A stretch of 59,663 bases of DNA from Myxococcales bacterium (GCA_003154095.1 PMCK01000061.1:1-59663), one strand, 5' to 3'; shown: positions 34,623 to 59,663, numbered from the stretch's first letter. Program-made: numbers and translations. The notes: generated from the letters alone by a model not told the origin.

Positions 34623-34638
34623 AGAGGGTGGTTCGAAA

Positions 34639-36291: not shown

Positions 36292-36308
36292 GCCTTTGGA
36301 GGAGCGGG

Positions 36309-38930: not shown

Positions 38931-38940
38931 GGAGAACCTC

Positions 38941-39153
38941 ATGTCGCAACAACTCCTTTCGAAACTGCTTGCAAACTTGCCGCCCATCAATGCCGAGCAG
39001 GGGGACTTCGGCAAGACGCTGGAGAGCAACCTAGTCGAAACGCAACTACTTCGACTGGCCACAGTTTCATTGGATCAGGAGACGCAGGTTCTGCGCACGA
39101 TCCTCGATAGCCTGGGGAAGATCCCGAAACGCGGCCAACCGAGCAAGCCCTGA
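38941..39153 (+). CDS. 70-aa hypothetical protein
   Basis: ATG 38941 follows GAGGAG, 10 nt after the upstream stop, and the ORF ends 2 nt before the vWA gene start. No motif recognised. Confidence 0.5.
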   Translation: MSQQLLSKLLANLPPINAEQGDFGKTLESNLVETQLLRLATVSLDQETQVLRTILDSLGKIPKRGQPSKP

Positions 39154-39155
39154 CG

Positions 39156-44300: not shown

Positions 44301-44404
44301 GCGCGCGGTTGACCTATCAAGAAATCGCAGCGCTGGAGTCCTTCCTGTCGATGGGCCGCGGAGGCTTCCGCATGGAACTGGAACGATACATCAGCGGCAA
44401 CTAA
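41384..44404 (+). CDS. Giant (about 1000 aa) tubulin/FtsZ-superfamily GTPase-like protein (Tubulin_2-like)
   Basis: GTG 41384 overlaps the vWA stop (GTGA); alternative ATG at 41420. IMLVGLGGSGQKIV (T1-like) and VCGSLAGGTGSGTFLDMGILLR (tubulin signature GGTGSG). Confidence 0.8.
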   Translation: MKFNNCKRVGNSMTKPIFRKIMLVGLGGSGQKIVLNLKRLLIDLYGVVPPSIKMLCLDTDVPMEGAASNVRESRHGFDPQEFLHIKVEQPAVFLRESPAVDRWFVKPVPIGAITSGAGAIRQNGRLAFFHNLHEIAQRIDTMKIALGDAALPRLMNSARTELGATMDFDLSPKEMEVYVCGSLAGGTGSGTFLDMGILLRAELPGALIHGFFLLDWLYRRNAFANRVGGNVYAALAELDNLQSIVYGSERFIPYEVDYGKRHVSVTQSPYTLFHVIDGRNENGENINDVNQVTEIVARAIFLSVGSMGPAVASVVDNLINHINVTGPKLWQGKYARYSSLGVSSLVYPAPEKHRRIAAEQALRLCDEAIAELEGVAVKGDDGTSAEISADIKKVLTQAGYPGNPLGNAVRPRLRTFVYPKLTSSDLADGVFPTNVTNKQRGIESQIQNAVENVFAAVGTNVVQTAHGAFRDRIAQLDANANVSAAYRKQWVEQAVAELQDLHQAAAAAEQEAQTSLSAARARASEHLATAQKLPMTWYGGRRKGAAEKWRVAVGQVLTAFRDGLVAAYERGVLKSGPESQTKGLIDLLTEQAQGSVPKASQIVELLRTARADLDGQLRIARREVDAIQSNVTNVVIGRDGIVVPGEFIEQLRPSGEITSAPGDRRSTLINLSLQRFKEESKVYVVDDYLKRSEGSAEKLAGLFSHYAKQRLAPLAFVDIHAAMKFHADVQGVELNDFLREQFSHMVRLASPLWTYTKAMLDATRRPHYDRVVNIGVHDGQAKSSYEQIIKASMARFGIGVEPAFTEVGDPYRIWFLNYAAALPAYMLETVEENRSEYETEILPPYHLDRYFETAVPDLYPHDDRDNITLRILGMAIIPGVDIICDEKLSKGHKYTCSDPEIQKRNGNERLVWLDFRTMYDDVRTNTELLDGLITALRQRMNSLSRDDAKPAIQGHIERVRAKLEHRDFSKLVSARLTYQEIAALESFLSMGRGGFRMELERYISGN

Positions 44405-44479: not shown

Positions 44480-45919
44480 ATGAACATAGAAAAGCGTATC
44501 GCGGAATTCGAGAACATACTAGAAGAGCGCGTGCTGTGTGATCCAAGCAAAGCAGCTATAGACAAACACAATGCACTCGCAAAGGCCTTCGAACAATGGC
44601 AGCACGAGGAGACTAGGCGCATCGAGGCTGACAAAGCAGTGCTCAAGACTCGTACAGATCAGCTCGATGAGTTCGACAGCCAAATCGATACGCTAAGGAA
44701 GGGTCTGCCTACTGAACCATCCACGGGCTCGGTACCTTCGGCAAATGATGCAGCCGTAAATGAAATAAATAGTCGGATTCGCCAACGCAATACGCTTGTC
44801 GACGACATTCATTTGTCGCAGCAAGCATACAACAAGCGAATTGTTGAATTCAACGCCGAGCAATCTCGGCGCGGGCGCGAGATCGACGAGCAGCGAGATA
44901 GGCTTAAACTGGAGGTCGATGCGCATAACCGGTGGCAGCAGCAAGATGGTATTTCTACACTGAGCCGCAACATCAACGATCTCTATGGACAACTCCACCG
45001 CGAGGCGCGCACGAGCCCAGTCGAGGCCATCACCCTGGAACCTTTCATCCGCCGACTGCGTCGAATGCGAAACGAGCTTGGTCTCAAGGCCCAACAAGAA
45101 GAGGCCAGCAAGGAGACGGGGCTCCTGGTCGTTCGATGCTCGTTAGGCGCAGACGAAGATTCCAAAGCGCCCCGCGAAGAGGCTTTTATGTGCGTCGACA
45201 ATGCATCGTCCCTGACGATATTAACGAGGGAAATGGTTGACGTTCTTGGGATCGGCAGCTTTGTCGGGGAAGAGGTCGAACTCACACTGGTCAACAGAAT
45301 CAAACTGCGCGCACCCCAAGTACTTCTGCCGAGCGCGTCAGTGGACGGCTGCGAAGCCAAGTACGTGAAGGCCGTGATATTGGACGAAATGTCGCCCGGA
45401 ATAAGTGGGATTCTCGGCCTAAGTTTTCTGTCACGCTTCGATTTCGTCGTTGAAAAACACAAGCCGCAGAGGCTCACGTTGAAAGGGCGCACACACGACG
45501 ACGATGATGCGTTCGATGTTTTCATCTGCCACAAAAGCGAGGATGCGGAATACGGCAGGGCCGTCTATGATCTCCTGGTCAAGGCCGACTATAGAGTCTT
45601 TTTCAGTGCGGCCGCGAGGGGTAGCGGAGAATTCCAGCAGGCTATCGATAAAGCGCTCGAAACGTCGACTTATATGGTTGTCGTCACCTCGTCGGAGAGT
45701 CACGTGCTTAAGCCCTGGGTCCAGACGGAATGGAGAATGTTCGACGGCATGATTCGGGAACGGAGAGACGGCGGAAAGAAGCGCCGTAGTATCGTGCCCG
45801 TCCTCTGTGGAAGCATGGAACGGAGCAGTCTTCCGATGGCGCTTCGAAGATTTGAAATGGTGGAATTCTCTCAGGACGGATGGGGAACAAAGTTACTGAA
45901 CCTACTGCGTCGTGGCTGA
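44480..45919 (+). CDS. Coiled-coil - retropepsin-like (clan AA) domain with DNA in place of D(T/S)G - C-terminal TIR
   Basis: The N-terminal ~200 aa are coiled-coil. FMCVDNASSLTILTREMVDVLGI ... ISGILGLSFLSRFDFVVE (retropepsin-like). FDVFICHKSEDAEYGRAVYDLLVKADYRVFFS...MVVVTSSESHVLKPWVQTEWRMF (TIR). Confidence 0.75.
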   Translation: MNIEKRIAEFENILEERVLCDPSKAAIDKHNALAKAFEQWQHEETRRIEADKAVLKTRTDQLDEFDSQIDTLRKGLPTEPSTGSVPSANDAAVNEINSRIRQRNTLVDDIHLSQQAYNKRIVEFNAEQSRRGREIDEQRDRLKLEVDAHNRWQQQDGISTLSRNINDLYGQLHREARTSPVEAITLEPFIRRLRRMRNELGLKAQQEEASKETGLLVVRCSLGADEDSKAPREEAFMCVDNASSLTILTREMVDVLGIGSFVGEEVELTLVNRIKLRAPQVLLPSASVDGCEAKYVKAVILDEMSPGISGILGLSFLSRFDFVVEKHKPQRLTLKGRTHDDDDAFDVFICHKSEDAEYGRAVYDLLVKADYRVFFSAAARGSGEFQQAIDKALETSTYMVVVTSSESHVLKPWVQTEWRMFDGMIRERRDGGKKRRSIVPVLCGSMERSSLPMALRRFEMVEFSQDGWGTKLLNLLRRG

Positions 45920-45934: not shown

Positions 45935-48658
45935 ATGAATCAGATCTCAAGCGACTTGCAAGCGCTGATGAACGAGTTTTCGAATGAGCAACCGGGGTAC
46001 TGTAGTTACAAGAATTTCCTGGAAAGCGTGCTACAAAGGGCGTGCATGCGCTTCGACCCGCTTGCCATCGTGCAAGCGCGAGTCAAAAAAGCGAGGTCCT
46101 TCGCCGAGAAGTGTGTCCGCAAAAAGTACGAGGAGCCGTTCAAAAGAATGACCGACCTCTGCGGCGCGAGGGTCATCGTTCGATCCAAACACACGGTGCC
46201 CCTGGTAGGGCGATTCATCCGCGACAATTTCCTTGTCGACGAGGCCAATAGCGCCGACATGGCTGGACGACTGGGAGCCGCTGAATTCGGATACGGCTCT
46301 CTGCACCTTGTCGTTCAGGTTCCCGAAGACATCGAAAGCCCCTCTCAAGCCAAGATAAGGCGCAATGGCCTCCCTTTGACGGGCCAGGAGAGGCAATGGC
46401 TTAAGGAGCTCAATCAAGGCCACCCTAGAAAAGCGGAGATCCAAGTACGCACACTCTTGCAGCACGTCTGGGCCGACGTCGTGCACGACCGCATTTACAA
46501 AACCAAGCTAAGAATACCTCCACGCTATGCACGTGTGGCGTCACGTCTTGCAGCCCTGCTCGAGGAGGCTGACAACAGTTTGGGCTCGTTGAGCGAATCG
46601 ATTGACGCTTACCAGGTGGACTACGGCGCCCACATGACGAAAAACCAGCTAGCTGATGAATTCAGTACGCTTCAGCTGCTTGCTAGAATGGCTGAGTCGA
46701 ACTTCAACTCGACGCCAACACCTAGTCGAGCCGAGGTTGACTCGGGGCCACGCGTGCCGTCAATCCAAGAAGTGGACTCGGCCGAAATAGCGACTCTGCA
46801 AGATCGAGGGGAGCTAGCCTTGCGGCTGGCGAAGGTAGCGAAATCAGCAGGCGATTGGGACAGTGTTATCGAAGTATCGGAACCGTTCCTCGCTCGCGCC
46901 GAGATCCTAGAGCGCGACGAATTGAGGCTCGAACATGGCTACGCCCTGTGCAAAAGACACGAGGAACATCCACTTGGTCCCGAATTCAAGCGGGGTTGCG
47001 ACGAACTACGCAAAGTCAAAGATGAGCCCGCGCTTGAGCGCACGGAACTCAAGGCGCGAGCTCTGGCCGCGCTCGCCTGGTCCGAACGCAAGCGTGCGCA
47101 GCCCGCTTCGCTTCGAGAAGCGCGCAATCTTAACCGTGAAGCCCACGCTTGTTCGCCGGGAAATCCATATATCCTCAAGGAATTCCTCGAATGCGAGCTG
47201 CGTTTGACTCAGAGGGTCGAGTCTATCGATCTGCTTGGACCAGAAATAGTGCGTGCAGTCGAAAAATGTGCCGAGCATGCGGAAGTAGGTATCGAACTCC
47301 CTTATGCCCACTTTACAAGTGGAAAGTTAAATGTGCTCGCCAAGCGAACGCAAGAGGGAATGCTTGCTTACGTGCGAGGAATTGCAAGTAGCAGCACTTC
47401 CTATGCTCTCGAGGAAGAGCTGGCATCCGTCGAAGCACTCGAAGACAGTCTTGGTAGCGACCTCAGGCAGCTGGAACAGGTTCGTCTTCTATTGCTCCTA
47501 GGCATTGCCGCCAAGGAGCACGTCGGCCTCAAAAGCAGGATTAATGTCAGGGAAAAGCTGGAGGCGACGTTTGATTGTGTCTTCGATCGCGTGACAAGAC
47601 TCAGAGGGTCAGAACTGCTTCCCAGCTTGACGCCGCTAACGCCGCCCATCATTGCCGTTGTAGGGGGAGCCGCCGCGCGGTTCGAGATCGAGATCGAGCC
47701 ATATCGCGAAATGCTCCGACACGCGTGCTTTCAATTCAAAGGGACAGTCTTTTCGGGTGGCACCATGCAGGGCATCCCCGGACACGTCGGAGAGATTGCA
47801 AAGGACGCGGCACAAGGGGGAAAGCTACAAGCATTTGCATACATTCCGCGCCTGCTACCCGAGGATGCCACACCACACGACGGCTATCGCGTGTTCGTCA
47901 TCGAGGGAACGGAAGGTTTCACGTATCGCGAACCCATGCAGAGTTGGGCCCATGTGCTGTTGTCCGGAGCGAGTCCCAAGGACGTTCGCATACTTGGCAT
48001 TGGAGGCGGACCAATAGCAAAATTTGAATTCCACCTGGGACTTGCCCTGGGAGCCACGGTCGGCATTCTGGCCAACAGCGGTCGCGCTAGTGAGGAGCTT
48101 CTCAAGGAAGAACCCTGGTGGCCAGCCGGCGCGGTACTCGCTCTACCCAATGATCGGAATGTTGTGCGAGCGTTCCTCCATTCGGGTGAACTGCCGTCCC
48201 TCAACACGTCGCCAGTAAGCACCGCCTACCTACCAGCAGCAAAAAAGGTGCACGATTTCTTTGTGCAGGACTCGCAGGCCCAGCAGGAGCCCGCTAGCTG
48301 GGAATCCCTTTCGCCCGATTTTCAATTGTCCAACATTCATCAGGCTATTTATGCCGAGAAGATACTCCGTGGCTGCGGATTCACGGTACACAAGCGGGTG
48401 GCAGACAGCAGCCCCGTCCTATCATTCGAGACCAATGAGATCGAGAGGATGGCGGCCATGGAACATGGGCGCTGGGTCTTCGAACGCCTACGTCAGGGTT
48501 GGCGTTACGGAGCGGTCCGTGACAACACCAAGAAAGTGCACCCACTGCTAGTTGGTTGGGAGCAACTCCCCCTCGTGGAGCAAGAGAAGGATCGTAACGC
48601 AGTGCGCCGCTTTCCAGAAGTGCTACGGGAAGCTGGGTTCGAAATTAGTAGGGTATGA
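45935..48658 (+). CDS. RelA/SpoT-homologue synthetase domain - helical/TPR region - SLOG (LOG/TRPM-N-like) domain - RyR domain
   Basis: RVKKARSFAEKCVRKK, MTDLCGARVIVRS and AEIQVRTLLQHVWADVVHDRIYK (RSH synthetase). IIAVVGGAA...VFSGGTMQGIPGHVGE...ILGIGGGPIAKFEFHLGLALGATVGILANSGRAS (SLOG). IERMAAMEHGRWVFERLRQGWRYG...KVHPLLVGWEQLPLVEQEKDRNAVRRFPEVLREAGFEI (RyR). Confidence 0.85.
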   Translation: MNQISSDLQALMNEFSNEQPGYCSYKNFLESVLQRACMRFDPLAIVQARVKKARSFAEKCVRKKYEEPFKRMTDLCGARVIVRSKHTVPLVGRFIRDNFLVDEANSADMAGRLGAAEFGYGSLHLVVQVPEDIESPSQAKIRRNGLPLTGQERQWLKELNQGHPRKAEIQVRTLLQHVWADVVHDRIYKTKLRIPPRYARVASRLAALLEEADNSLGSLSESIDAYQVDYGAHMTKNQLADEFSTLQLLARMAESNFNSTPTPSRAEVDSGPRVPSIQEVDSAEIATLQDRGELALRLAKVAKSAGDWDSVIEVSEPFLARAEILERDELRLEHGYALCKRHEEHPLGPEFKRGCDELRKVKDEPALERTELKARALAALAWSERKRAQPASLREARNLNREAHACSPGNPYILKEFLECELRLTQRVESIDLLGPEIVRAVEKCAEHAEVGIELPYAHFTSGKLNVLAKRTQEGMLAYVRGIASSSTSYALEEELASVEALEDSLGSDLRQLEQVRLLLLLGIAAKEHVGLKSRINVREKLEATFDCVFDRVTRLRGSELLPSLTPLTPPIIAVVGGAAARFEIEIEPYREMLRHACFQFKGTVFSGGTMQGIPGHVGEIAKDAAQGGKLQAFAYIPRLLPEDATPHDGYRVFVIEGTEGFTYREPMQSWAHVLLSGASPKDVRILGIGGGPIAKFEFHLGLALGATVGILANSGRASEELLKEEPWWPAGAVLALPNDRNVVRAFLHSGELPSLNTSPVSTAYLPAAKKVHDFFVQDSQAQQEPASWESLSPDFQLSNIHQAIYAEKILRGCGFTVHKRVADSSPVLSFETNEIERMAAMEHGRWVFERLRQGWRYGAVRDNTKKVHPLLVGWEQLPLVEQEKDRNAVRRFPEVLREAGFEISRV

Positions 48659-48665: not shown

Positions 48666-51600
48666 TCATCCGCAACCAGGTGTCGGCACGCCCTCCCGAC
48701 AAACAATGGATCCGCCGCCAGGCAGGCCAATGCTCTGCAATTGCCCGTGCGATCCATAACTGTAGCGTGTCGTATGCCCAAGCGCGTCGCGCACCGACAC
48801 CACGCGAGCGCGATCGTCGAGCCCGTAGGTCGCGCTGGCACCGGTCGAGGTGCGCAGGGTGATCTCGCGTCCGCGGATTTCCAGGGCTCGGCGCTCACCA
48901 CCGCGCAAGATCTCGATCTCGGCGAACTCACCGTCTAGCGTGTACTTCATGTTCGAGACTGCGCCATCAAGCGATTCGACTCGCACAGGCCTGCCCTCTG
49001 TGTCGCGGGCGATCCCCTGGGCCGCCGCGGACGGGGCTGCCGGAATCGCACTCGCATCGGAGCGTCCCAGGGAAAGGGATTTGCTCGGATCCGTTTCGTT
49101 GTCGCCAGGCGCAAGCCGCGAGTATTGCACCACTCGACCGTCAGCATTGCGCACGAAGCGCTCTTCGTATCCGCCTTGATACCGGACACTTTCAAGACCA
49201 TTGGCGCTATATGAAAAGTTTGCGTAGGTCTGTCCGCCGACGAGGATCTCCGTAAGCTTGCGGTCGGGCAGGTATTTGAACTCTGTCTTCGAGCCCGTCG
49301 GGCTCTCCAATTGGGTGATATCGCCCTGAGCCGAAAATGCGACAACACCACGACCGCCACCAGGCAATGTCGTTGTCACGCGACTTAAGTGGCCCCCATC
49401 GTAGTCATAGTCAACCGCCGAACCATTCTGCCGGGCGACGTGTTTCATGCGCAGTTTGGTGTCGTAAATTGTCGTAAGCGCGTCGCCTGTCTCGGTTCGT
49501 GTGACGGTGAGCTGCTGGCCCTGCATCTCGAACGTCTGGCGCGACGACAAGGAGTCTCCAGTGTTTTGCTCGATCATCCTCCCGAAGGCGTCGAATTGCC
49601 TCTTCTCCGCGACCTGGCTGTCGAGTGTGACCTCGACTGGGTGATGATGCTCGTCATAGCGATAGCCAAGCGCCCGCGCGCCTCGCACGGCGCTTAGATT
49701 GCCTGATGCGTCGTAGGCATACTCCACCCTTCGATCACCTCCGGCGACAGATAGAAGGCGCCCCGACGCGTCTCGCTCGAAACGAACCGTGAGGCGGTGT
49801 TCGCCCCGACTAAGTTCGATCGAGTCGATTCGACCGTCACGCCGGTACGAATATATTGCTTTTGCCTCGCCACGAAACAGTGCGCGAAGTCGCCCAGTCA
49901 AATCAAACAAACCCTGGTCACCTCGGGCCCAAAAGACGCGAAAAAGATTGTTCCCTTCAGGATAAACACCGCGAATCTCAGCTGCTTCGGACTCGCTCGC
50001 AAAACCGACGCGCTTTAGGGCCATGTCGGCAAATGGCCGAGTGAACCGAATCGCAGCCTTGCCGTCGGTGAGAGTGAAATGGTGCTCCACAATCGAACCC
50101 ATTCCTTCAAATGCGATGGTTCGCTGTGTGTGCTCGGGCGTGCCCGGCGGGGCTTCGAAGCTAAGGCGCAGCACCCGAAGCGACCAACCGTAGCCAAGCT
50201 CGGTTTTCGGATTTTGTGACGACGAATAGAAGCGAGTGAGACCTGGGAGACCTTCGAGTTCGCGGGCCCAGGCAGGGACGGAAAAGTCGCTGACAGCGGT
50301 CTCGTAGGTCCCGAGTTCCGCGACGTCGTTCGTCGGCAATACGGCTGCAACTTGATCACGCCCACCCACCTGAACCTTGGCGACGTCCAACACGGCGAGC
50401 GGCGTTGCGTCTACCGCGGCGAGCACGGAAGTCATCGCGGTGTCGACGTCTGGTGAAATTGCCATAGCCAACTTCGGCTGCATGTCTACCCCGCCGATAG
50501 CATTCACCCGCCGTATCGCATTGCTCGATCTACTCTCGATTTCGTTGTACGCCGAGGGCGTCGCGCTCGGCGTTGGGTAGGGCTCCGCCAGGACCTGCGC
50601 AACGAAACCCCAGTCAGCGGGCACTTTTTGCTCCTTTAGCCAGCGAGCGAGTGCCACGGCTTGCGTTACCAGTTTGAGCTCGGCGAAGATTGGCTGCTCC
50701 TTCGCAAACTCGTCATAGTGTTCACTGAAGTGACGAGCGAAGGCCTCGGCAAGCGGGTCCTGTACGCCGCCGGCGGAAACCAACTTGCCGCCAGCCCATC
50801 GCATCGTTTCGGTCTTGATGTGCATGCGGATAGGATCGAAAAATATCCCGTCCTTGCCAACGCGTGCGGTCACCGGCTCAGGCACGAGCCAGAATCGGCT
50901 CCAGAGGCCATTGGCTCCGCCATTGGTCTCAAGCTGCCGAGCCGTCACACTTTGGTAACCTGGAACACCGGAAGAGAACTGGGCGCGCGTAAGATTGTCC
51001 CGACCAACTGACATCGCTTTCATCACACGGTCAGCCTCGAACATGACGCCCCCGAGCGACGTGTATTCCGTTCCGCCGAAGAAGCGAACCATCATTACCG
51101 GACCCCGCGGATCTCCGGGGTTGGGGTCGATAGTCATGCCCGGAGCCTCGGGGCTCGGCGTGTACACAGCGCGAATCGCGGCCGCCAGGTACTCGGGTTT
51201 CATGGGTGGCAGCGTGTGCTGTCGATCACCAATGAGGACCAAGCGACCCGAAGCGTGATCGAACATTGCACCCGTGATGTTTCCGAGATCGCCAAGGATT
51301 TTAGCAGTTTGGTCGAGGTACACGCCGCCAACGAGGGGGGAAGCGGACCCGCTGGGAGGCGGAGGCGGAGGCGGGGGAATAAACAAATTCCGCGTACGGT
51401 TGAATGCACCAGCCCCAATTGGGTCGAGAACTGCCACATAGTCGAGAGGATCGCGAGCCGACTCTATCTTCTGCACGAAACGGGCAGACAGCGTTTGAGG
51501 GATCTGGCTTTGCCAGATCTCGCGACCAAGCTTGTAAAATCCTTGGTAGCGCATCAAATCTTTACCAAGGTCCCCACGACCGAGCCAATCTTTTTGTCCT

Positions 51601-53630
51601 ATCCAGATGCCAGCGAGCTGGTCGGCCCCCTTCAGTAGCGCTTTGGTGTCGTTCCCGTGCTCGTGATAGTACCACATATCGTTAATTGCCAGGGCACTAT
51701 TGAGTGTTCCGAATGGCACTTTGAGCGGAGGTATGAGTGAGAGTCCACGCACTACTGCACGTATTCCGTGCTGGTAGGGTGTGTCCGCGTAAAACAACTC
51801 GCCCGACTTCAGACTTTGAGCCGCCATCCCCGGGAGTATCTTCCACCAGCGATTCGCAGAGTCGTCAACCAAGGGGTAGCGCGGCGGCGCCAGCGTAAAC
51901 GAAGAAAGGCCCGTGAATGACGACTCTGAGTTCTTCGAGATCCAGGGCGGGGGTATGTAGCGCGTGTCCAATGCCGGAGGCAAAACCGCCGGTCGGAAAA
52001 GCTGCATTGACGGGAGCTCGCGGTGCAAACTCAAGATTCGCCAGAGCTCGCGATTGGGATCGTAGTACGTGGGAGGTGGCGGCGGGGGCTGCCAAGATTG
52101 AAGACCCGTCGGGTCGGCACGATTGACCGGATCATTCTCACAATAGGCGTAACGATTTAGAGACTGCGGGCTTTCGAGCGATGGGGGATGAGGATCCTGC
52201 GAGATAAAACGGCCGATTGCCGGATCGTAATAGCGATGGCGCAGGTACAAAAGCCCGGAATCGGCGTCCCAAGCCTCGCCCGTGTAGAGATACGGTCCCG
52301 CAACGGAGCCCTCAATGCGGGTAGGTTTCCCAAATTCGGAGTAATCGTAGCGCGCTACTACGTCACCCTTCTCGTCCGCGATGACGCGCGTCGAACCCAA
52401 CTGATCTTCCAGGTAAAAGCTGACCGCACCGCTCGCATCGCGATGCCCGACGCGCGAAAGCCCGAGAATATCGTGCGTGACCTTACCTTTCCCGTCGTGC
52501 TCGGCGATCACTTGCGGCACGGGAGCGACGGAATCGTAGAGGTAGTAGGTGCGTACGTCGCCCAAAGAGCGCTCAGCACGCACGCCATCCGCGCGGTATC
52601 GATAGCGCAGGGTTGCGGCGTTCGTGCGCACCGCGATGAGCCGCTGATCGCCGTCCCATTCGTAGCGAGTCGTACCGCCCGGACCGGCTCGAGTGATAAT
52701 CCGCCCCGCTCCGTCGTAGTCGAAACGCTCATTCCCGACCCGGACCAGCCGCCCCCGTTCGTACTGGTAGTTGAGCGTCCCATGCGCGTCCTTCCGAGAC
52801 AGCAGGTTTCCGTCAGCGTCATACGCGAGCTCCACGTCACCATCGGACCCGATCACGTGAGACAACCTGCCGAGCACGTCGTACTGATACTTACGGGTCG
52901 TGACGCCTTTCGACGTTTCCTCGTCCGTCTGAGTGACTCGCCCGTCGGAATCACGTGCGTAGCGAAGTTCGAGAACCGGCGATCCGTCTGCGCGCTCGTG
53001 GCGAATGAGTGCCATCTGACCGGACTCGTCCCTTCGGAAAATGCTCTTGATGCCGTTCGACAGCCGTCGAACGACTTCCCGTTGCACCATGTTGTATTCG
53101 TATGTAACCGTGAAGCCCGTGCTGGCTACTTCCGTTAATCGTTGCGAGACGTCGTAGCGATATGAAAGCTTGCCGCCCCCCGGAAGGCCGATGTCGCGCA
53201 CCGAACCCCAGGGATCGTAGCCATAGACCAGACGCATCCCTTGTGGGCTCGTCACCGACGCGATCGATCCGAAGTCATCCCATTTCAAAGTCGTGCGACC
53301 CGTCTCGTCGTCCATCGATGTCAGGCGCAGCGAGGCATCGTGCTCGAAGCGAACGCTACGTTTCGCGGGGTACTTCCAGTTCGTCCAGCGCCCCTTGCGC
53401 GAATAGCGAATCTCATTGAGGAGCCCTGCGGAGTCGTAACCATAGCGCTGAATCTCGCCCACTCCGGTGTCCAGGAGCTCAAGCCGCCCGGACGTGCCGC
53501 GACGTTCACGGGGGGAACCGAAGCGAGGCAAACCGTAGTCCGCGACAATGACAGTGACGAACACGAGCCCCAATCCTAGGGCGAGTAGGGCCACGGCGCG
53601 CGCGCGTGACTGGAACTTAATCTCCTTCAT
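48666..53630 (-). CDS. Atypical Rhs/YD-repeat protein: TM anchor, short YD block, Rhs core motif, ~700-aa unknown region flanked by poly-Pro, second YD block
   Basis: ATG 53630 follows AGAGGAAG (the ORF-track TTG at 53642 lies inside that RBS). AVALLALGLGLVFVTVIV. YD units (YGYDSAG, YEYN, YQYDVLGR, YDADGNL...). LYLRHRYYDPAIGRFISQDP ... NDPVNRADPTGLQ. PPPPPP and PPPPPPPP tracts. More YD units follow (YAYDASGNL, YRYDEHHH, YDYDGGH...). Confidence 0.85.
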   Translation of the reverse strand: MKEIKFQSRARAVALLALGLGLVFVTVIVADYGLPRFGSPRERRGTSGRLELLDTGVGEIQRYGYDSAGLLNEIRYSRKGRWTNWKYPAKRSVRFEHDASLRLTSMDDETGRTTLKWDDFGSIASVTSPQGMRLVYGYDPWGSVRDIGLPGGGKLSYRYDVSQRLTEVASTGFTVTYEYNMVQREVVRRLSNGIKSIFRRDESGQMALIRHERADGSPVLELRYARDSDGRVTQTDEETSKGVTTRKYQYDVLGRLSHVIGSDGDVELAYDADGNLLSRKDAHGTLNYQYERGRLVRVGNERFDYDGAGRIITRAGPGGTTRYEWDGDQRLIAVRTNAATLRYRYRADGVRAERSLGDVRTYYLYDSVAPVPQVIAEHDGKGKVTHDILGLSRVGHRDASGAVSFYLEDQLGSTRVIADEKGDVVARYDYSEFGKPTRIEGSVAGPYLYTGEAWDADSGLLYLRHRYYDPAIGRFISQDPHPPSLESPQSLNRYAYCENDPVNRADPTGLQSWQPPPPPPTYYDPNRELWRILSLHRELPSMQLFRPAVLPPALDTRYIPPPWISKNSESSFTGLSSFTLAPPRYPLVDDSANRWWKILPGMAAQSLKSGELFYADTPYQHGIRAVVRGLSLIPPLKVPFGTLNSALAINDMWYYHEHGNDTKALLKGADQLAGIWIGQKDWLGRGDLGKDLMRYQGFYKLGREIWQSQIPQTLSARFVQKIESARDPLDYVAVLDPIGAGAFNRTRNLFIPPPPPPPPSGSASPLVGGVYLDQTAKILGDLGNITGAMFDHASGRLVLIGDRQHTLPPMKPEYLAAAIRAVYTPSPEAPGMTIDPNPGDPRGPVMMVRFFGGTEYTSLGGVMFEADRVMKAMSVGRDNLTRAQFSSGVPGYQSVTARQLETNGGANGLWSRFWLVPEPVTARVGKDGIFFDPIRMHIKTETMRWAGGKLVSAGGVQDPLAEAFARHFSEHYDEFAKEQPIFAELKLVTQAVALARWLKEQKVPADWGFVAQVLAEPYPTPSATPSAYNEIESRSSNAIRRVNAIGGVDMQPKLAMAISPDVDTAMTSVLAAVDATPLAVLDVAKVQVGGRDQVAAVLPTNDVAELGTYETAVSDFSVPAWARELEGLPGLTRFYSSSQNPKTELGYGWSLRVLRLSFEAPPGTPEHTQRTIAFEGMGSIVEHHFTLTDGKAAIRFTRPFADMALKRVGFASESEAAEIRGVYPEGNNLFRVFWARGDQGLFDLTGRLRALFRGEAKAIYSYRRDGRIDSIELSRGEHRLTVRFERDASGRLLSVAGGDRRVEYAYDASGNLSAVRGARALGYRYDEHHHPVEVTLDSQVAEKRQFDAFGRMIEQNTGDSLSSRQTFEMQGQQLTVTRTETGDALTTIYDTKLRMKHVARQNGSAVDYDYDGGHLSRVTTTLPGGGRGVVAFSAQGDITQLESPTGSKTEFKYLPDRKLTEILVGGQTYANFSYSANGLESVRYQGGYEERFVRNADGRVVQYSRLAPGDNETDPSKSLSLGRSDASAIPAAPSAAAQGIARDTEGRPVRVESLDGAVSNMKYTLDGEFAEIEILRGGERRALEIRGREITLRTSTGASATYGLDDRARVVSVRDALGHTTRYSYGSHGQLQSIGLPGGGSIVCREGVPTPGCG

Positions 53631-53728
53631 ACTTCCTCTCAACTTGGCACCAAAGTCGCTCCCTCAGCGATTCTCACGTTACACCACAATTCCGTGCTTG
53701 CCTGACAATTTCTTGGTAAGACTAACCC

Positions 53729-54190
53729 ATGGTAACCACGCTCCTGGATGCAATCAAGTTGGCCATTGAATGCCATGATAATGCGCTCGATAAAGAAGGA
53801 ATGGAACCATACATATTGCATTCGTTACGCGTAATGCTCCGGCAAAATACGGACCACTCACGCATGGCTGCAGTCCTACACGATACACTCGAAAACTCAG
53901 GATTGACGGCGGAGCAGTTAAGTGAGCGCGGCTACCCTGAACCCGTGATCGAAGCATTACGCCTACTCACCAGAACTTCACCCGACGACTATGATAACTA
54001 CATAGATAACCTCGCGACAAACCCAATCGCGCGCAAAGTGAAGCTAGCCGACCTTGAAGACAACATGAACGTCACACGGCTACGTTCACTGGACAAACAC
54101 GCGCACAACCGACTCGATAAATACCTCCGATCTTGGTGGAAGCTGCGTGCCATCGATATGGAAAGTGACACTCAGCCGGGAAGAGCTTAG
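53729..54190 (+). CDS. Small HD-domain protein of the RelA/SpoT hydrolase type (small alarmone hydrolase-like)
   Basis: AIECHDNALDKEGMEPYILHSLRVM, MAAVLHDTLENSGLTAEQL, VIEALRLLTR and KVKLADLEDNMN follow the H..(x)..PY..H / LHD..E(D) / KlAD..dN pattern. The usual ED pair reads EN here. Confidence 0.75.
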   Translation: MVTTLLDAIKLAIECHDNALDKEGMEPYILHSLRVMLRQNTDHSRMAAVLHDTLENSGLTAEQLSERGYPEPVIEALRLLTRTSPDDYDNYIDNLATNPIARKVKLADLEDNMNVTRLRSLDKHAHNRLDKYLRSWWKLRAIDMESDTQPGRA

Positions 54191-54486
54191 ACTTGCGTGG
54201 CCATGCCTTGCCTGCTGGCGCCGAACTGGAAGAGCCCGTTGCATCTGCGCGTCTGGAACATGTCGAACTGAACTGGCAACACGAACACGAGAGGAACTCA
54301 TCATTAGCGGCTCCACAAGAGGCGGAATGCCATGGCCCGACGACACTCGGAAGCACCACGGGAATACATTTGGCTCTGCCTAGGTGAAGTCTGCGCCATC
54401 ATCCCCCAACCTCCCCTGACGCCAACGCATGATACAATCTCCCTCCACACGTCGCTGCCGCAAAATCCAAGTGCCGCTCACGACAA

Positions 54487-55533
54487 TCAAAATTCAAGCA
54501 GCGAGGCGAATTCAAGTGCCAGTTGATCTGGATCGGGCACGTGCAAATAGGTTGACACGCAAGTGTCCACGGTATTGCCATGGCGCACACGGTATACCCT
54601 CACTCCCAGCTCACGGCGTAGCCCGACTTTCAGCTCACGTAGCACATCCAGTGACCCTGCTTCGGTGACGAAGAGGTAGCCGTCGTTTCGATTGTACAAG
54701 AATCGATCAAGGTCGAAGCGAAGCAGCGCCTTTCGTTTCACTTCTGCAGGAGCCTTACCCAAGCCATATAGCTGCCAGGTGAGTTCGGGGTAGCGGGTTA
54801 TCTCACGCTCTGCGACAATCTGCACGCAAGCCTTTAGGCGAGCGCGGATGAAATCGAGCATGGCGATGCCAGAAGGGCTTACCAGAACGAATGGCTGTGC
54901 GACGTCGGACGGCGTCAACGAGCGTACCGGAAGATCGAGCAAGGGGCGGAAAGAGGATCGCGGCACGACAACCTCGTCGAGCCAAAGGGACTGTTCGAGC
55001 TCGATGGAATTTAGATAGCGGCGGCGCCATTCGAGGCGGTCGAACCAGCGACGCAGGAGTGAATCCGCGCCGAGATGAGCCAGCCAGTTGTGCAGTGCAT
55101 CACCGGTTTTCACTTTGGATCGATCAAGATCCGTCGTATCGACCAGTCCGCCGAGGCGTCGAAAAAGGGGAATCACATGCTTGTGGTGCAATATCGCGCC
55201 CGCGTTCGCGGCGGCGACCAATGCGCGCAACCGGCGATCTTGATAGTCGAATCCCCAGGCCCAGACCATGCCGTCCTCGGTTTCCATTCTTATGCCAGGC
55301 AACGCCCATATCCCCCGTTCAAGCGCGCGTACAGTCAGGGCGGGTATGCGATCAACGCAGCAGAGATCGGTGATGCCAATCACAGAAAGTCCATCGCCTT
55401 GTGCACAGCGCGCAATATCCTCGGGGTCGACGTCGGAAAAGCCCCACTTGGCAGTGTAACCGAGATCCACCTTGGCCTCTGGAGAAATCGGCGAACGAAA
55501 TTCGCTCGCCCTCGCTTTGCGGCTACTCGTCAT
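54487..55533 (-). CDS. Degenerate PHP-like N-domain + C-terminal domain with NDK-like pattern (tentative)
   Basis: VDLGYTAKWGFSDVDPEDIARCAQGDGLSVIGITDLCCVD...IWALPGIRMETEDGMVWAWGF parallels the PHP pattern (DLH.H...SDG...pe......G...iaiTDH....G......vipG.E......H.l.), but the His ligands are replaced. C-terminal PFVLVSPSG...YLHVPDPDQLALEFASLL loosely parallels NDK (F.iiKP.. ...N..HgSDs.e.A.rEi). Confidence 0.45.
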   Translation of the reverse strand: MTSSRKARASEFRSPISPEAKVDLGYTAKWGFSDVDPEDIARCAQGDGLSVIGITDLCCVDRIPALTVRALERGIWALPGIRMETEDGMVWAWGFDYQDRRLRALVAAANAGAILHHKHVIPLFRRLGGLVDTTDLDRSKVKTGDALHNWLAHLGADSLLRRWFDRLEWRRRYLNSIELEQSLWLDEVVVPRSSFRPLLDLPVRSLTPSDVAQPFVLVSPSGIAMLDFIRARLKACVQIVAEREITRYPELTWQLYGLGKAPAEVKRKALLRFDLDRFLYNRNDGYLFVTEAGSLDVLRELKVGLRRELGVRVYRVRHGNTVDTCVSTYLHVPDPDQLALEFASLLEF

Positions 55534-56690
55534 GGGCGCAGGTTCCTTTCGACTGAAGTGCTCAGGCAGCGGTAAACATCAAAGCAATGCTTGAGGCAGA
55601 TACGGTCACAACGACGGTCGCTGCAGATGAAATCTTGCAAGGCAGATTCCTTCTCTTTGGGGGAGTCTTCATGACCATAAAGCCGGCGCCCACCCTCTCG
55701 CAATTGGATGATGCAAGGGTACACGCCGTCAGCTGCGAAGACTCGGTCGTCCACCGTGTGATAACAGAAGTGGGGCTTTTCAGAGCTAAGTCCATGCCCG
55801 CCGCGCTTCAGGTTATCGATACGGTAATGGAACATTCGAAAACTTTCGGGCACCCATTGCTTGCAGAGTTGAACGAATCGGGACTTTTCCGCCTCGTCTT
55901 CGAACAGGGGTCGAGCGGCTGTCGCATCTGGAAGCAATTTGAAGTCGTCCGGACGCAACCCAATGAGCTCTCGCAGCATTGAGCGAAGCATTCTGGCGTC
56001 GTCGTGGAGGAAGCGAATGACCTGGCTGCGACCGAGTACCGAATTTATCGTAACATGAACGTCACGACCCGAGTCGCGAGCGGTTACGAGCCCACGGATC
56101 GCATCGAGCACGCGTGGCAGCTGCCGCCGTGAGTTCGTGACCTGGTCGAAAGCGTCGGAATCGAAGCTGTCCAGTGAAATGTAGAAACGCTGCATTCCGG
56201 CTTGCACGAGCTGAATGCAGAACCCCGAACCCGCTACGGCATTTGTCGAGATTGATGCACCGAACTCCAACAATCGAGCTTGATGCGTGAGCGCTACTAA
56301 TGAAGGATAAGTGGAGGGCTCTCCGCCGGTAAAATGAATATGGTGCGTTCCGTCGTGGGATAGTTCATCAAGTAAGCGCTCGACCTCTGGCGAAGCAAAC
56401 GGCACGGCATCGCGGCCGCGACTCTGGCAATAGGTACAGCCCAGGTTACAGTGGCGCGTTAAGAAGAAGACCGCGCGAGCCGGACCACGCCAAAGCTCGA
56501 CTTGCCCGTTCAAACCGGCACGGATACGAATTGCCAGAGCCGACGCCCGCTTTTCATCGAGCAGGTAACCGGTTGCTGGCATCTGGCCGGCTCGACCATT
56601 CTCAATCAGTGGTTCGCGATAAATCGGTAACCGACGAATGGGGGAGCCAACGGATTGCTGCGACAGGTTCAGCATCGTCATGAGGTACAA
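55530..56690 (-). CDS. Radical SAM enzyme (MoaA/PqqE-like core) with Cys-rich C-terminal extension
   Basis: FFLTRHCNLGCTYCQS (CxxxCxxC), IHFTGGEPS, YISLDSFD, TINSV. C-terminal Cys cluster region CYHTV...YPCI...FICSDRRCDRICLKHCFDVYRC. The stop overlaps the downstream start (ATGA). Confidence 0.85.
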   Translation of the reverse strand: MYLMTMLNLSQQSVGSPIRRLPIYREPLIENGRAGQMPATGYLLDEKRASALAIRIRAGLNGQVELWRGPARAVFFLTRHCNLGCTYCQSRGRDAVPFASPEVERLLDELSHDGTHHIHFTGGEPSTYPSLVALTHQARLLEFGASISTNAVAGSGFCIQLVQAGMQRFYISLDSFDSDAFDQVTNSRRQLPRVLDAIRGLVTARDSGRDVHVTINSVLGRSQVIRFLHDDARMLRSMLRELIGLRPDDFKLLPDATAARPLFEDEAEKSRFVQLCKQWVPESFRMFHYRIDNLKRGGHGLSSEKPHFCYHTVDDRVFAADGVYPCIIQLREGGRRLYGHEDSPKEKESALQDFICSDRRCDRICLKHCFDVYRCLSTSVERNLRP

Positions 56691-56758
56691 AAGCAGGACG
56701 ATGCCGATCGATGATATCTGACAGCCTTGCGATCATTGCCAGCTGCGTGATTTCAGTC

Positions 56759-58462
56759 TCAGTACCAAACACGGTCCAGCGCAGCTTCCAGCTGCGAAAT
56801 CGGCGCTGTCATCAAGTCGGCATAGGCCGCCGTTGCGCCCGGATGCGATTGTGCGAGTTTGCCGCGCGCGTCGGCGATAGTTATTTCGGCCTCACTAAAA
56901 TGGGAAAGATCCCATTGCGCGAGGGCAAGTTCCAGCTTCACTAGATGCTCGAGCCAGGCCAATTGATCGGCACCTGCCGTGAGTCTAGGCTGGACTCGTT
57001 CGGCGAATGCAGTGGCCCGCTCAGGCGCGTCGACTCTGCGGCACGCTCGGCAGAGGGCACGCAACGTGCTTACTTCGGGATGGCTGTCCACAATAGCCTC
57101 ACAGAGCGCCAAGTCCTGCAACGAAGCTGGTGCCGATTGACCGCAAATTCGAGTGCGTCCATCCGCCCAATCTAACGCCTCACGATTTCGCCCCAGCAGC
57201 ACTAGTCCACGAACCATTGCCGACGCATTGTAACGCCATTGGTGAGCGTCGCCGGGCTGTGTCACTTCACATAGCCTCTCAACATACGTATCGAATCGCT
57301 CAGAATCTCCAAGCAAGGCCGAATCCAATGCAAGGTAGCAGTATGTTCCGGGCAGAACACGCCTCAGCCAATCTTCCGTCTGCTGCAATGGAATGTTTTC
57401 GGCACGCGCCTGCAACGCTTCGTCGAATCGCCCCGCCATCGCAAGCCCTTGGGCGAGCATTCCGCGGCACCGGACCTCATTTCTCAATATCAAGAATGGT
57501 CTTGTGACGCGTTCGCGAAGTGTGGCAATGGTTTCGTCAAGGGCATACTGGTCAAGCTGCGTGAGCCAGTACTCAAGTTCAAAACGCTCGGATGCTTCCG
57601 CGCCCACGATGCCTCGGGCACTTTCCAGGGCCAATATGCCTATTGTATGTGCGGCACGCGCCTCTTCAGTTCGACCCGCATGCCTTAGCCGCGTCCCCAG
57701 TTCTAACTCCAGCCGCGCCCGATCCGCCTCGGCCAACCCGTGACGCGAAACACTTTGCAACGCGGCTGCAGCCATATCATGGTCCATTTCGCGTCGACTC
57801 CGTTCGATAACTTCATCGAGCGCAATCAGCGCGGGATCGGGGTGCAGAGGCGCCTCTCCGAATAGAAATGTTAGCGCATCGGAGATGTGATTGATGCCCT
57901 GAAGCGAGCCTTCGCTTCGATTTCCTGGAATGAATATGACTCCGGGACCACCGCGTAGCTCGGCCAGTGCAATCTCGATTTTTGCTTCGAGGAACTCAAC
58001 AGACTCAACCCGCCCATCGTCCGCAAGGCAACCTGTAGCGAACACTGGAATCTTCAACTTCCGTGATTTGGGCAACAAGTACGCGACAAAAGCGATAGCT
58101 GCTGCAAGTTCAATCGAGTCGCCGACAAGGATGAATCGCGGATCGAGTTCAAAACGTAGAGACGGCGGGTTCCAAGGCTGCAACGCCTTCAGAGTTGCTT
58201 GCCAGGCCCGTCGAAACCCCCTTGTGACGTTCGAATCCTTCACTGCGAGTTCCCCGGGGATTGGCTCGAGTGGCCACGCCATGCCCATAGCCCCGGGAAG
58301 GACACCCAAAGCATACACCCTTGATTGCAGTTGGGAATGCCTCGCCCTCAAGCGCAGACTATTAGCAGCGGCGCCGCGCAGATCACCCAGCACGCGGCAA
58401 GCTGTAACACCTGCACCGGCGTCCACCAACCTCGTGGCCAACGCGAGTCGCTGCGATTTCAC
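56759..58462 (-). CDS. Lon-protease-like (S16) domain + C-terminal TPR-like helical repeats
   Basis: The GTG start overlaps the upstream stop (GTGA). FILVGDSIELAAAIAFVAYLL...IPVFATGCLADDGRVESVEFLEAKIEIALAE...VIFIPGN parallels the Lon proteolytic domain (G(P/D)SAG..a.al.S.l....vA.TGe....G.V..igG...K..aA...g...viiP..N). The remainder is helical/TPR-like. Confidence 0.6.
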   Translation of the reverse strand: MKSQRLALATRLVDAGAGVTACRVLGDLRGAAANSLRLRARHSQLQSRVYALGVLPGAMGMAWPLEPIPGELAVKDSNVTRGFRRAWQATLKALQPWNPPSLRFELDPRFILVGDSIELAAAIAFVAYLLPKSRKLKIPVFATGCLADDGRVESVEFLEAKIEIALAELRGGPGVIFIPGNRSEGSLQGINHISDALTFLFGEAPLHPDPALIALDEVIERSRREMDHDMAAAALQSVSRHGLAEADRARLELELGTRLRHAGRTEEARAAHTIGILALESARGIVGAEASERFELEYWLTQLDQYALDETIATLRERVTRPFLILRNEVRCRGMLAQGLAMAGRFDEALQARAENIPLQQTEDWLRRVLPGTYCYLALDSALLGDSERFDTYVERLCEVTQPGDAHQWRYNASAMVRGLVLLGRNREALDWADGRTRICGQSAPASLQDLALCEAIVDSHPEVSTLRALCRACRRVDAPERATAFAERVQPRLTAGADQLAWLEHLVKLELALAQWDLSHFSEAEITIADARGKLAQSHPGATAAYADLMTAPISQLEAALDRVWY

Positions 58463-59616
58463 CGTTTGGGACCAACAATCGCATGGGTCAGAATACCTGT
58501 AGCGAGGGGCAATTCGAGTTTCACATTCGTCGCGTCACGCCAATTGCCTTCAAGCCGAAACTCAAACCGTTCCTCGCAGTCTGGCACCGCGAGCCCGTCA
58601 ACCGAGATTCCGGCGATATACAACCGCGGCGCGGCACCCTCTTTACGATTAGCGAGTAGATCAACAATGAGCCGATCGGGCTGCTGCCAAGACAATTCAA
58701 ACTGCGACTCAGTCAGAAGCAGCTGTTCACCTGATTCGAAGCCAGCCACCATCGGCAATTCCAAAATGTCCTTATTCGCTTGGTGAGCGCGCTGGCGATT
58801 CAACCAGTCTTCGAGGCGGATTACCGTTTCGCGAGACTGGGCCAATCGCGGTGCGGCATCAACCAACCGCGTAAACAGCCTTTCTGCTTGTATAGCCTTG
58901 TCGAGCTCCGATCTGGCTGAAGGGAAACACTGTACCAAATGCGCGACAGTCGAGAGCGCTTGCAGAGCGTTTCTCGGAACGTCGACACCTTCGGACCACC
59001 ACCAAAGCTTCTTGCGCATTGACGGATCAACCCAAGCCAAGGCTGCTTCACGCTCGGCGTTCAACGGAATCAGACGCCAAAGGATAGGTCGTACCAGCAG
59101 TTCGAAGCCCTCGAGAGGCGCCGTCTGATCGTCACTGAGCTGCGGCGACTCTCCGAGCAGCGCACCGAGCCCGACCATCAGCAATTCAGCCCTTTCCCGG
59201 GCATTGAGAGCCTGCAGCACGCGACTGGAAACATCATTCTCGGCGATACCCGCATCATCATCGAGAGCCGCCGCTTCATCGGTGATGATCGTTGTGGCAT
59301 CGTCGAGCCAGTCGAAATTCGCGCGCGCAATAAATTGGCGAGCAATTGTCAGCAAATCCGGTCGAATAGCTATGATTTGCGGTAATTCATTGGATGCTCC
59401 GGCAAGGCACAGCTTGCCCGCTGCCAAAATGTACCGTTCATCAAGGGTGTCGTGTAAGTCGGTACCTGCAGCATCTGCCTTATTCTCCAGCGCAGCGGAA
59501 TTGACTGTATGCTCTACCATCGAGTTGGCAGGGGCGGGGCGGGATGTGGTTTGCATCAACATTGAGCGCGCGGTCTGGAGAGCCTGCTCACGAGGCGAAA
59601 GGGTAGACGAAGTCAT
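58459..59616 (-). CDS. Hypothetical protein (first gene of the minus-strand operon)
   Basis: 385-aa ORF. The ATG is preceded by AAAGGA. Translationally coupled to the Lon-like gene. No motif recognised. Confidence 0.6.
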   Translation of the reverse strand: MTSSTLSPREQALQTARSMLMQTTSRPAPANSMVEHTVNSAALENKADAAGTDLHDTLDERYILAAGKLCLAGASNELPQIIAIRPDLLTIARQFIARANFDWLDDATTIITDEAAALDDDAGIAENDVSSRVLQALNARERAELLMVGLGALLGESPQLSDDQTAPLEGFELLVRPILWRLIPLNAEREAALAWVDPSMRKKLWWWSEGVDVPRNALQALSTVAHLVQCFPSARSELDKAIQAERLFTRLVDAAPRLAQSRETVIRLEDWLNRQRAHQANKDILELPMVAGFESGEQLLLTESQFELSWQQPDRLIVDLLANRKEGAAPRLYIAGISVDGLAVPDCEERFEFRLEGNWRDATNVKLELPLATGILTHAIVGPKR

Positions 59617-59663
59617 CGGCGTGATCCTTTCGCCTTCACCGGGCCAGATTGTTTGATGTCGTC

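Follow-up and report, generated by a model that had tools for sequence, protein, structure and literature searches.

We examined a 59,663-nucleotide (nt) stretch of DNA from a Myxococcales bacterium (GCA_003154095.1, PMCK01000061.1:1-59663). This whole stretch, referred to here as the window, is the entire contig C182 of an 8.7 Mb genome in 714 contigs. Near its end lies a minus-strand array of four genes, g1 to g4, which a fifth gene on an adjoining contig (C187) extends upstream. We are confident that the array consists of two modules. Module A is a trio of an extracytoplasmic function (ECF)-like sigma factor, g1 and g2, a Lon-type protease with a TPR solenoid. Module B is a cassette of g3, a radical S-adenosylmethionine (SAM) enzyme, and g4, a protein with a nucleoside diphosphate kinase (NDK)-like domain. 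We lean, at slightly better than an even chance, toward a composite reading in which these two modules lie side by side, module A works as a switch resembling the CalpL-CalpT-CalpS system, module B modifies nucleotides, and the two are plausibly co-expressed in this genome. What we value most among the new findings is the radical SAM/NDK-like unit, with its fusions and catalytic-type residues, together with the CRISPR-independent sigma/Lon-TPR trio.

The four minus-strand open reading frames (ORFs) lie where an earlier note on this DNA had placed them (Table 1), and their junctions are also as it had described them. The g1/g2 junction reads CGGTGAAA, with a GTGA overlap, and the g3/g4 junction reads CCATGACG, with an ATGA overlap. 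Between g2 and g3 there is a gap of 68 nt counting g3 from its TTG start (slightly longer from a downstream ATG), and a scan of this spacer for sigma-70 promoters and terminators found neither a terminator-like hairpin nor a recognizable promoter (nothing above shuffled expectation). The earlier note had also advised extending the sequence beyond position 59663 in search of the promoter and further genes. This brought in the fifth gene, encoding the ECF-like sigma factor, but no common ECF-type promoter motif. C187 overlaps the end of C182 by exactly 126 bases and continues the minus strand upstream, giving an array of at least five same-strand genes. The sigma ORF (L003:7059-7730 on C187) encodes ~223 aa from the first ATG clear of a divergent gene, and its stop overlaps the g1 ATG as ATGA.

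The division into two modules is seen in other genomes. Relatives of g2 close trios with overlapping stops and starts, in which a ~210-aa sigma-like protein and a g1-like protein precede the Lon-TPR protein. A g1-like gene accompanies the Lon-TPR gene in nine of 11 loci and abuts it in eight; carriers include Minicystis rosea and other Myxococcales. Module A was found in 2 of the 401 genomes sampled in the window's phylum, and viral contigs held no g2 relatives. The cassette was followed in 20 radical SAM-bearing loci, drawn from assemblies plus one genome per species, some of them duplicate records of one contig. At every one of these loci a PHP/NDK-like homologue follows the radical SAM gene at ~0-70 nt. 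Beyond the pair, the cassette loci have no third conserved gene, no phosphoribosyltransferase (PRTase) and no conserved small ORF, and tblastn detected no g1, g2, sigma gene or small HD gene in any of the 20. The cassette occurs in 4/401 genomes of the window's phylum, in 0/29 of its family and in 1/351 sampled Chloroflexota genomes, yet it is present in at least seven phyla, a rare and patchy distribution that suggests horizontal spread. No family member was found in the plasmid collection, where only generic MoaA/PqqE-type radical SAM proteins matched, or in viral contigs, where the g3 profile matched only generic radical SAM proteins.

Because trio and cassette are each conserved alone and never together elsewhere, we regard them as two juxtaposed modules and not as one system. 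The earlier note had joined the four genes in a nucleotide-modifying defense module under a protease-TPR sensor. In its fullest form this would make all four (five) genes one defense system, whose Lon-TPR protein senses infection and directly controls a radical SAM/NDK effector. Such a system would fit the common strand, the 4-nt overlaps, the 68-nt gap with no predicted terminator, the surrounding island rich in defense genes and the known modularity of defense systems. We nevertheless consider it improbable, since the trio genes accompany the cassette at 0/20 loci, the cassette accompanies the trio at 0/11, and each half, complete as it stands, is conserved by itself. The synteny of the four-gene set that was to be expected elsewhere thus did not materialize. 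As the Lon-TPR protein belongs to a separate sigma trio, the placing of a radical SAM module under a protease-TPR sensor can be no more than a peculiarity of this genome; the nucleotide part of the proposal gains strength from the fusions described below.

The protein that defines module B together with the radical SAM enzyme is g4, which the earlier note had correctly read as an inactivated PHP fold joined to an NDK-like C-terminus. It has no Pfam, NCBIfam or PADLOC family match. Its AlphaFold model (pLDDT 89.6, pTM 0.84) matches in Foldseek, in the PHP part, the RNase AM PHP structure 7ug9 (E 1e-5) as well as 3o0f and 2yb1. g4 is ~30% identical to 485-505-aa partners bearing Pfam PHP (PF02811). 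These long-form partners resemble TrpH/YciV (RNase AM) and Cv1693-type PHP proteins and keep the full HxH...DH...H motifs, whereas g4 retains a remnant of the fold. In g4, HLHS has become GYTA (HxH to GYT) and DH has become DL, and ~140 barrel residues are deleted, including the segments bearing AHP and GSxFHG. The close relatives of g4 have undergone the same changes; with the metal ligands replaced and the central barrel gone, hydrolase activity is very unlikely. RNase AM-type PHP domains (TrpH/YciV, Cv1693) act on RNA 5' ends and on pAp. Short partners devoid of PHP metal ligands fall at three separate points of the partner tree, and a single-clade constraint was rejected (approximately unbiased [AU] test p 0.007), so PHP catalysis has been lost at least twice independently while the NDK-like domain was kept. 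Repeated PHP decay set against a strongly constrained NDK-like domain amounts to a natural experiment on which activity is essential.

The C-terminal domain of g4 has the fold of NDK (PF00334). In Foldseek it matches mimivirus NDK 3b6b (E 2e-4, TM score 0.66, probability 1.0) and dozens of other NDKs (TM 0.64-0.66, target-normalized, probability 1.0). It differs from NDK in an extra conserved N-terminal helix motif, KRxxWRxxNL, and in accompanying a radical SAM enzyme in every locus examined. Over 93 representatives the His corresponding to H331 is conserved in 99%, the Lys at K302 in 98%, the Arg at R306 in 95%, and the Glu at E341 and the Tyr at Y256 in 87% each; conservation of the Pro-Asp pair is also high. 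Distant members retain the NDK 'IKPxG' motif along with the preceding KRxxWRxxNL helix.

A profile search of 1.84 billion representative proteins returned 102 relatives of the NDK-like domain. The core family (21/102, at E < 1e-30) carries it C-terminally in 345-508-aa proteins, and most of the others are stand-alone proteins, 170-220 aa long. Matches of 540-573 aa proved to be radical SAM fusions in all seven cases scanned, in either domain order. In at least nine representative clusters the fusion partner of the domain is a full-length g3 homologue; the fused radical SAM parts are 25-34% identical to g3 over residues ~71-384, Cys-rich tail included (E 1e-27 to 1e-45). A g3-type radical SAM enzyme and the NDK-like domain are therefore one functional unit, to which PHP is an add-on. 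The unit numbers ~100 representative clusters at 50% identity, and neither the partner domain nor the radical SAM clade has a Pfam, NCBIfam or PADLOC model. One further relative, P0210 (332 aa), joins the NDK-like domain (residues 24-158) to a dCMP/cytidine deaminase domain (residues 194-308), which may be read as an independent hint, from sequence, that the NDK-like domain handles pyrimidine nucleotides.

The pairing could instead mean that the NDK-like domain is a protein substrate of the radical SAM enzyme, for example with its invariant His modified, or a docking or recognition domain for it. Obligate pairing, fusion in either domain order, the placement of the His in an exposed H-x-P-D motif and the database label of one homologue as pyruvate formate-lyase (PFL)-activase-like would all suit this explanation, but the conserved Lys, Arg, His, Glu and Tyr mirror the nucleotide- and phosphate-binding residues of NDK, and fusions of the domain to a dCMP deaminase and to PHP phosphoesterases point to a small-molecule nucleotide as common ligand. 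We hold a substrate or docking role to be highly improbable.

g3 is a radical SAM enzyme (Pfam Radical_SAM PF04055, E 3e-19) with four invariant C-terminal cysteines, in line with the MoaA-like enzyme with a Cys-rich tail that had been noticed before; its family also keeps a GGE motif and an N-terminal GYLL..R motif. This family is sharply bounded, with ~18 clusters at 230-450 bits followed by generic MoaA-type matches at 74 bits or less. By the curated family thresholds g3 is neither a MoaA nor a viperin: it scores 74.9 bits against MoaA TIGR02666 (cut-off 284) and 48.2 bits against viperin NF038283 (cut-off 180, with only residues 75-221 aligned), and it reaches 53-57 bits against the PADLOC pVip models over the core alone. 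Members of the g3 family carry PF04055 only, whereas true MoaA matches also carry Mob_synth_C (PF06463). The nearest solved enzymes, again over the core only, are BlsE, SkfB, MoaA, PqqE and viperins, and of these BlsE, MoaA and the viperins act on nucleosides or nucleotides.

SPASM families align to the radical SAM core of g3 alone, all far under cut-off. These sub-threshold matches to peptide maturases, together with the presence of a radical SAM enzyme and a protease on one strand, are what could be said for a cluster making a ribosomally synthesized and post-translationally modified peptide (RiPP), in which g3 would be the maturase and g2 the leader protease, the alternative that the earlier note had offered. 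A precursor ORF, a SPASM domain and a RiPP recognition element (RRE) were not detected, the protease does not accompany the radical SAM enzyme elsewhere, and the obligate partner is of nucleotide type. The RiPP explanation is effectively refuted.

Like the prokaryotic viperins (pVips), module B has a MoaA/viperin-like radical SAM core that is paired with, or fused to, a domain of nucleotide phosphotransfer type. It differs from them in the distinct C-terminal half of g3, with its four invariant cysteines, and in a partner of NDK fold in place of a P-loop kinase. Prokaryotic viperins often adjoin or are fused with nucleotide kinases, and MoaA and viperins act on nucleoside triphosphates. The Ophion system consists of a radical SAM protein (OpnA), a PHP protein (OpnB) and a PRTase (OpnC) and is active against jumbo phages (bioRxiv 10.1101/2025.09.30.679545). 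Ophion and the cassette are both compact units that are proposed to act on nucleotides and that pair a PHP phosphoesterase with a radical SAM enzyme; however, the PHP of OphB is of HisJ type and that of the cassette of TrpH type, Ophion has no NDK-like domain, and the cassette has no PRTase. Comparison with the OphA and OphB sequences (Table S1 of the Ophion paper) led us to reject orthology: the g3 family aligns to OphA with an hhalign probability of 2.6%, through the cluster motif only, and the PHP partner matches OphB at the HxH/DH motifs only. A functional analogue is the thmA-C cluster for 4'-thiothymidine, which combines a radical SAM enzyme, a kinase and an NTPase. We read the cassette as an analogue of viperin plus kinase or of Ophion; it is an orthologue of neither.

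Since the nearest characterized folds all handle nucleotides, we infer a role for the unit in making or processing a modified nucleotide; that module B modifies nucleotides is in our estimate probable. g3, with its auxiliary Cys4 site, would act together with the NDK-like domain, which would serve in phosphotransfer or nucleotide binding; the TrpH-type PHP phosphoesterase that the partner carries in most lineages would be accessory, and in the lineage of the window it has decayed. Several results weigh against this interpretation. No PADLOC model matched g3 beyond generic similarity in the radical SAM core. The NDK-like domain has no PF00334 match, and hmmsearch of its profile against the PDB finds no NDK. 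A local hhalign comparison with NDKs of related genomes was non-significant (E 0.099), yet collinear over the whole domain; this non-significant alignment sets H331, E341, R306 and Y256 on the NDK catalytic His, Glu129, Arg105 and Tyr52. The relation to NDK also failed in global hhalign. The window's own subfamily lacks the equivalent of NDK Lys12, which distant members have. Finally, the wider neighborhoods of the cassette loci are mutually unrelated and mostly not defense-like.

Those neighborhoods, which hold transporters, thiolases, AMP-binding enzymes and sugar-nucleotide enzymes, bear on whether module B is immune at all. It might make a nucleoside-analogue antibiotic, another specialized metabolite or a cofactor, or it might modify or repair RNA, in the manner of thmA-C or OxsA/OxsB. 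The metabolic and transport genes found around it elsewhere, the thmA-C precedent and the action of RNase AM-type PHP on RNA 5' ends and pAp all speak for such a role. On the other side, no export, resistance or tailoring gene is conserved with it; a unit of two genes only, in ~1% of genomes in the sampled phyla, is typical of mobile accessory functions; and the window copy sits in a conflict island. We think a non-immune role unlikely. The neighborhoods, mostly not defense-like elsewhere and defense-like in the window, would suit an antiviral product as well as an antibiotic or metabolic one.

In module A, several lines of evidence place a sigma factor in the first position. The C187 protein matches Pfam Sigma70_r2 under cut-off (E 5e-4). 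The profile of the first genes of the trios (A5) matches solved ECF sigma factors (SigL 6dv9, E 1.2e-5), these genes align with the C187 ORF in sigma region 2, and locus L013 holds a canonical Sigma70_ECF gene in the same slot.

The third gene of the trio, g2, is Lon-like with TPRs, as had been proposed. In an alignment of 26 g2-family members (40-47% identity), G114, S116, G144, V155 and K161 are invariant; S116 and K161 are 45 residues apart. The g2 profile matches archaeal LonB (1z0b, E 1.1e-5) and many other Lon entries in the PDB over the full proteolytic domain, and Pfam Lon_C is detected in 5/26 members. g2 alone has no significant Pfam or NCBIfam match. Within PADLOC its best matches, weak ones at residues 112-167, are to CARF-Lon, SAVED-Lon and CRISPR-Lon. 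TPR_12 is found in eight family members, with TPR_10 and TPR_7 also matched in the family, and the C-terminal part of g2 matches alpha-solenoids in the PDB and bacterial kinesin-light-chain TPRs; its C-terminal 350 residues gave no SAVED match. g2 has the Ser-Lys dyad of S16 proteases in a Lon_C fold but lacks the AAA+ module that precedes it in LonA and LonB: the protease domain begins at about residue 45, and Pfam, NCBIfam and PADLOC gave no AAA+ match. This makes g2 not a canonical Lon but, like CalpL, a Lon-like protease that stands alone. A link to BrxL of BREX, which the earlier note had raised as one context for Lon-like proteases, was rejected (E 1.1 to 8eil, no PADLOC BrxL match).

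The middle gene, g1, had been taken for an orphan, but relatives with 25-34% identity are sited beside g2 relatives. The match to the Minicystis middle gene is 33% identity over 365 aa (E 7e-43), and seven others match at E 1e-16 to 1e-42. g1 is cytoplasmic, with a helical domain (residues ~56-250) and a C-terminal beta-sandwich (residues ~295-382); in the AlphaFold2 model (pLDDT 74.6) the helical domain is confident and the beta-sandwich is present. It has no Pfam, NCBIfam or PADLOC match. Assignment of g1 to a CalpT-like or anti-sigma fold was rejected, neither sequence nor fold matching. It may be an anti-sigma factor or a substrate of the protease.

Two characterized systems offer models for the trio. 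CalpL-CalpT-CalpS comprises a type III CRISPR-associated SAVED-Lon protease, an anti-sigma factor and a sigma factor of the ECF-like kind. Like it, the trio encodes an ECF-like sigma factor within the unit and fuses a stand-alone Lon-type protease to a sensor-type domain. The sensor of g2 is, however, a TPR array, whereas that of CalpL is SAVED, which binds cyclic tetra-adenylate (cA4); the trio has no CRISPR or cyclic-oligoadenylate context (no cas genes in the 11 trio loci or in the annotated parts of the window and C187), no similarity between g1 and CalpT could be detected, and the gene order is sigma-X-protease. In Myxococcus xanthus, DdvS/DdvA, an ECF sigma factor and an anti-sigma factor with a TPR-CHAT module, controls a CBASS-CRISPR island (PMC11506125). 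There too, and in the same phylum, an ECF sigma factor gated by a TPR and protease-type module drives adjacent defense genes. DdvA differs in being a single transmembrane anti-sigma factor with a periplasmic caspase-like CHAT domain; the protease of the trio is cytoplasmic, of Lon type and a protein separate from the candidate anti-sigma factor.

Because sigma factor, middle protein and sensor-fused Lon mirror CalpS, CalpT and CalpL and resemble DdvS/DdvA, we propose that g1 is cleaved in response to a signal and that the sigma factor is thereby let go. A protein or ligand cue would be sensed by the g2 TPR array, the ATP-independent Lon-type Ser-Lys protease domain would cleave g1 as the candidate anti-sigma factor, and the sigma factor, once released, would redirect RNA polymerase, following CalpL/T/S logic with TPR in place of SAVED. 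This mechanism is argued by analogy, and we put it tentatively, at a little under an even chance. Counting against it, the g2 profile matches CalpL only weakly (E 0.17), the g1 family profile has no sequence match in the PDB, and the g1 model has no fold match in the PDB (none under E 0.15, with CalpT entries absent among the matches) or in BFVD. The sigma gene is joined to the window by a 126-base assembly overlap only, which could be a graph branch. A search for an ECF-type bipartite promoter motif common to eight trio sigma-gene upstream regions and the g2-g3 gap gave no more support than shuffled sequence. A shared TGGCAAT heptamer, spotted by eye, is within chance expectation.

Module A might be no more than an ordinary stress-response ECF sigma unit, adjacent to module B by coincidence of island assembly. 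ECF sigma factors paired with anti-sigma factors are very common and their partners diverse, no PADLOC system matched, and the neighborhoods of the trio vary. The neighbors are, however, repeatedly of conflict type (a divergent RNA ligase in three loci, MORC-like ATPases in L011, a STAND-like kinase/AAA_16), and the class of the protease best matches CRISPR-Lon, SAVED-Lon and CARF-Lon within PADLOC. A plain stress-response unit is in our view a serious contender, if on the unlikely side. If the CalpLTS-like reading holds, the trio would show the protease-released sigma principle of CalpL/T/S outside CRISPR and with another sensor, and would widen transcriptional immune or stress signaling via regulated proteolysis.

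The island context, which the earlier note had singled out for checking, turned out to be defense-rich. Upstream of the sigma gene on C187 (L003:970-5720) lie an AbiEii/AbiEi pair, a truncated tyrosine-integrase gene, a PIN-domain gene and a gene for a 538-aa DUF4145-TPR-S-RyR protein. The window side contributes an Asp-protease-TIR protein, a RelA/SpoT-RyR protein, an RHS protein and a small SpoT-type HD hydrolase. No DNA-level counterpart of the region was found in ten same-genus genomes. The conflict-type neighbors and the lack of a same-genus counterpart together suggest an accessory island in which conflict systems abound. In such an island, the 68-nt gap and the absence of a terminator make it plausible, from the sequence, that g3 and g4 are expressed under or with the sigma switch, by read-through or in a sigma-dependent manner, and module A might in this way regulate module B.

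A bolder formulation, which we offer as speculation and rate as rather unlikely, would make the g3-type radical SAM enzyme and the NDK-like His domain (separate, fused or on a PHP protein) an undescribed, scattered nucleotide-modifying immune or antibiotic system, captured here to serve as output of a switch that is CRISPR-independent and made up of a TPR-sensing Lon protease, an anti-sigma factor and an ECF sigma factor. If true, the captured cassette would be a transcriptionally gated, viperin-like defense. Module B would add a chemistry to the few nucleotide-acting radical SAM enzymes (MoaA, viperin, Ophion, nucleoside-antibiotic enzymes), a group that is a source of chain-terminating or otherwise bioactive nucleotide analogues.

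Table 1. Features of the array in the window (positions counted from the first letter of the window).
Feature	Position	Strand	Remarks
ECF-like sigma-factor gene, 3' end	59613-59663	-	last 17 codons including stop; remainder on C187
g1	58459-59616	-	385 aa
g2	56759-58462	-	567 aa
g2 Lon-type (S16) proteolytic domain	57863-58330	-	residues ~45-200; Ser116 and Lys161 catalytic-type
g2 TPR-like alpha-solenoid	56759-57820	-	residues ~215-567; presumed sensor or interaction domain
g2-g3 spacer	56691-56758	-	68 nt; junction of the two modules
g3, radical SAM enzyme	55530-56690	-	386 aa; small distinct family
g3 CxxxCxYC triad	56427-56450	-	C81/C85/C88; CNLGCTYC
g3 four invariant C-terminal Cys	55584-55766	-	C309, C326, C365, C369; family alignment
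g4	54487-55533	-	348 aa
g4 remnant of TrpH/RNase AM-type PHP domain	55129-55482	-	residues ~18-135; alignments A1 and A4, Foldseek
g4 linker helices	54922-55116	-	invariant R166, W169, R170; K-R-x-x-W-R-x-x-N-L motif of wider family
g4 C-terminal NDK-like domain	54490-54921	-	residues 205-348; near-invariant K302, R306, H331, P333-D334, E341, Y256
Weak terminator-like hairpin right after g4 stop	54472-54485	-	consensus match only; no more frequent than in shuffled sequence

The hairpin after g4 may mark the end of the operon. At other trio loci, a variant (L013:6377-7000) has a class III nucleotidyl-cyclase domain protein as its middle gene beside the canonical ECF sigma factor. At L011:2355-7249 an operon that starts with the g1-like gene and also encodes two MORC-like HATPase_c_3 proteins runs toward the Lon-TPR gene in convergent orientation. 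The divergent RNA_ligase (PF09414) gene stands beside the sigma gene at L012:4169-5191, L014:4248-5213 and L030:269-1255. The divergent 408-aa ORF on C187 has an internal lipoprotein-type signal (MNWMFAK...GC). Among the cassette loci, the radical SAM and partner genes of an 'Enterobacterales' metagenome-assembled genome (MAG) are both frame-split (L028:4348-6785), through decay of the copy or assembly errors. Another locus, L015, comes from a 9.2 Mb genome (G297 = G413) labeled 'uncultured Enterobacterales bacterium'; it was placed in the window's phylum beside a Nannocystaceae MAG, and the label is probably wrong.

Elsewhere in the window, a 153-aa small HD protein similar to RelA/SpoT hydrolases (TIGR00691 E 9e-6; HD_4 weak) is encoded convergent to g4 (53729-54190, plus strand). 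Directly downstream of the HD gene is an RHS/YD-repeat protein of 1658 aa whose linkers are rich in proline (48666-53642, minus strand). A further protein, of 907 aa (45935-48658, plus strand), has a RelA_SpoT synthetase domain at its N-terminus (E 4e-14) and RyR at its C-terminus (E 4e-12) and looks like a toxSAS-like conflict effector. The HD protein could be a small alarmone hydrolase that neutralizes this RelA_SpoT-RyR protein 5 kb away. A 479-aa protein combines a retropepsin-like aspartyl protease domain with TIR_2 (E 2e-16; 44480-45919, plus strand). Another conflict or chaperone system, based on NTPases, may be encoded by a run of large plus-strand genes (27817-44404), whose products are TPR proteins, homologues of GrpE and HSP70, a VWA protein and a Tubulin_2-like protein of 1006 aa.

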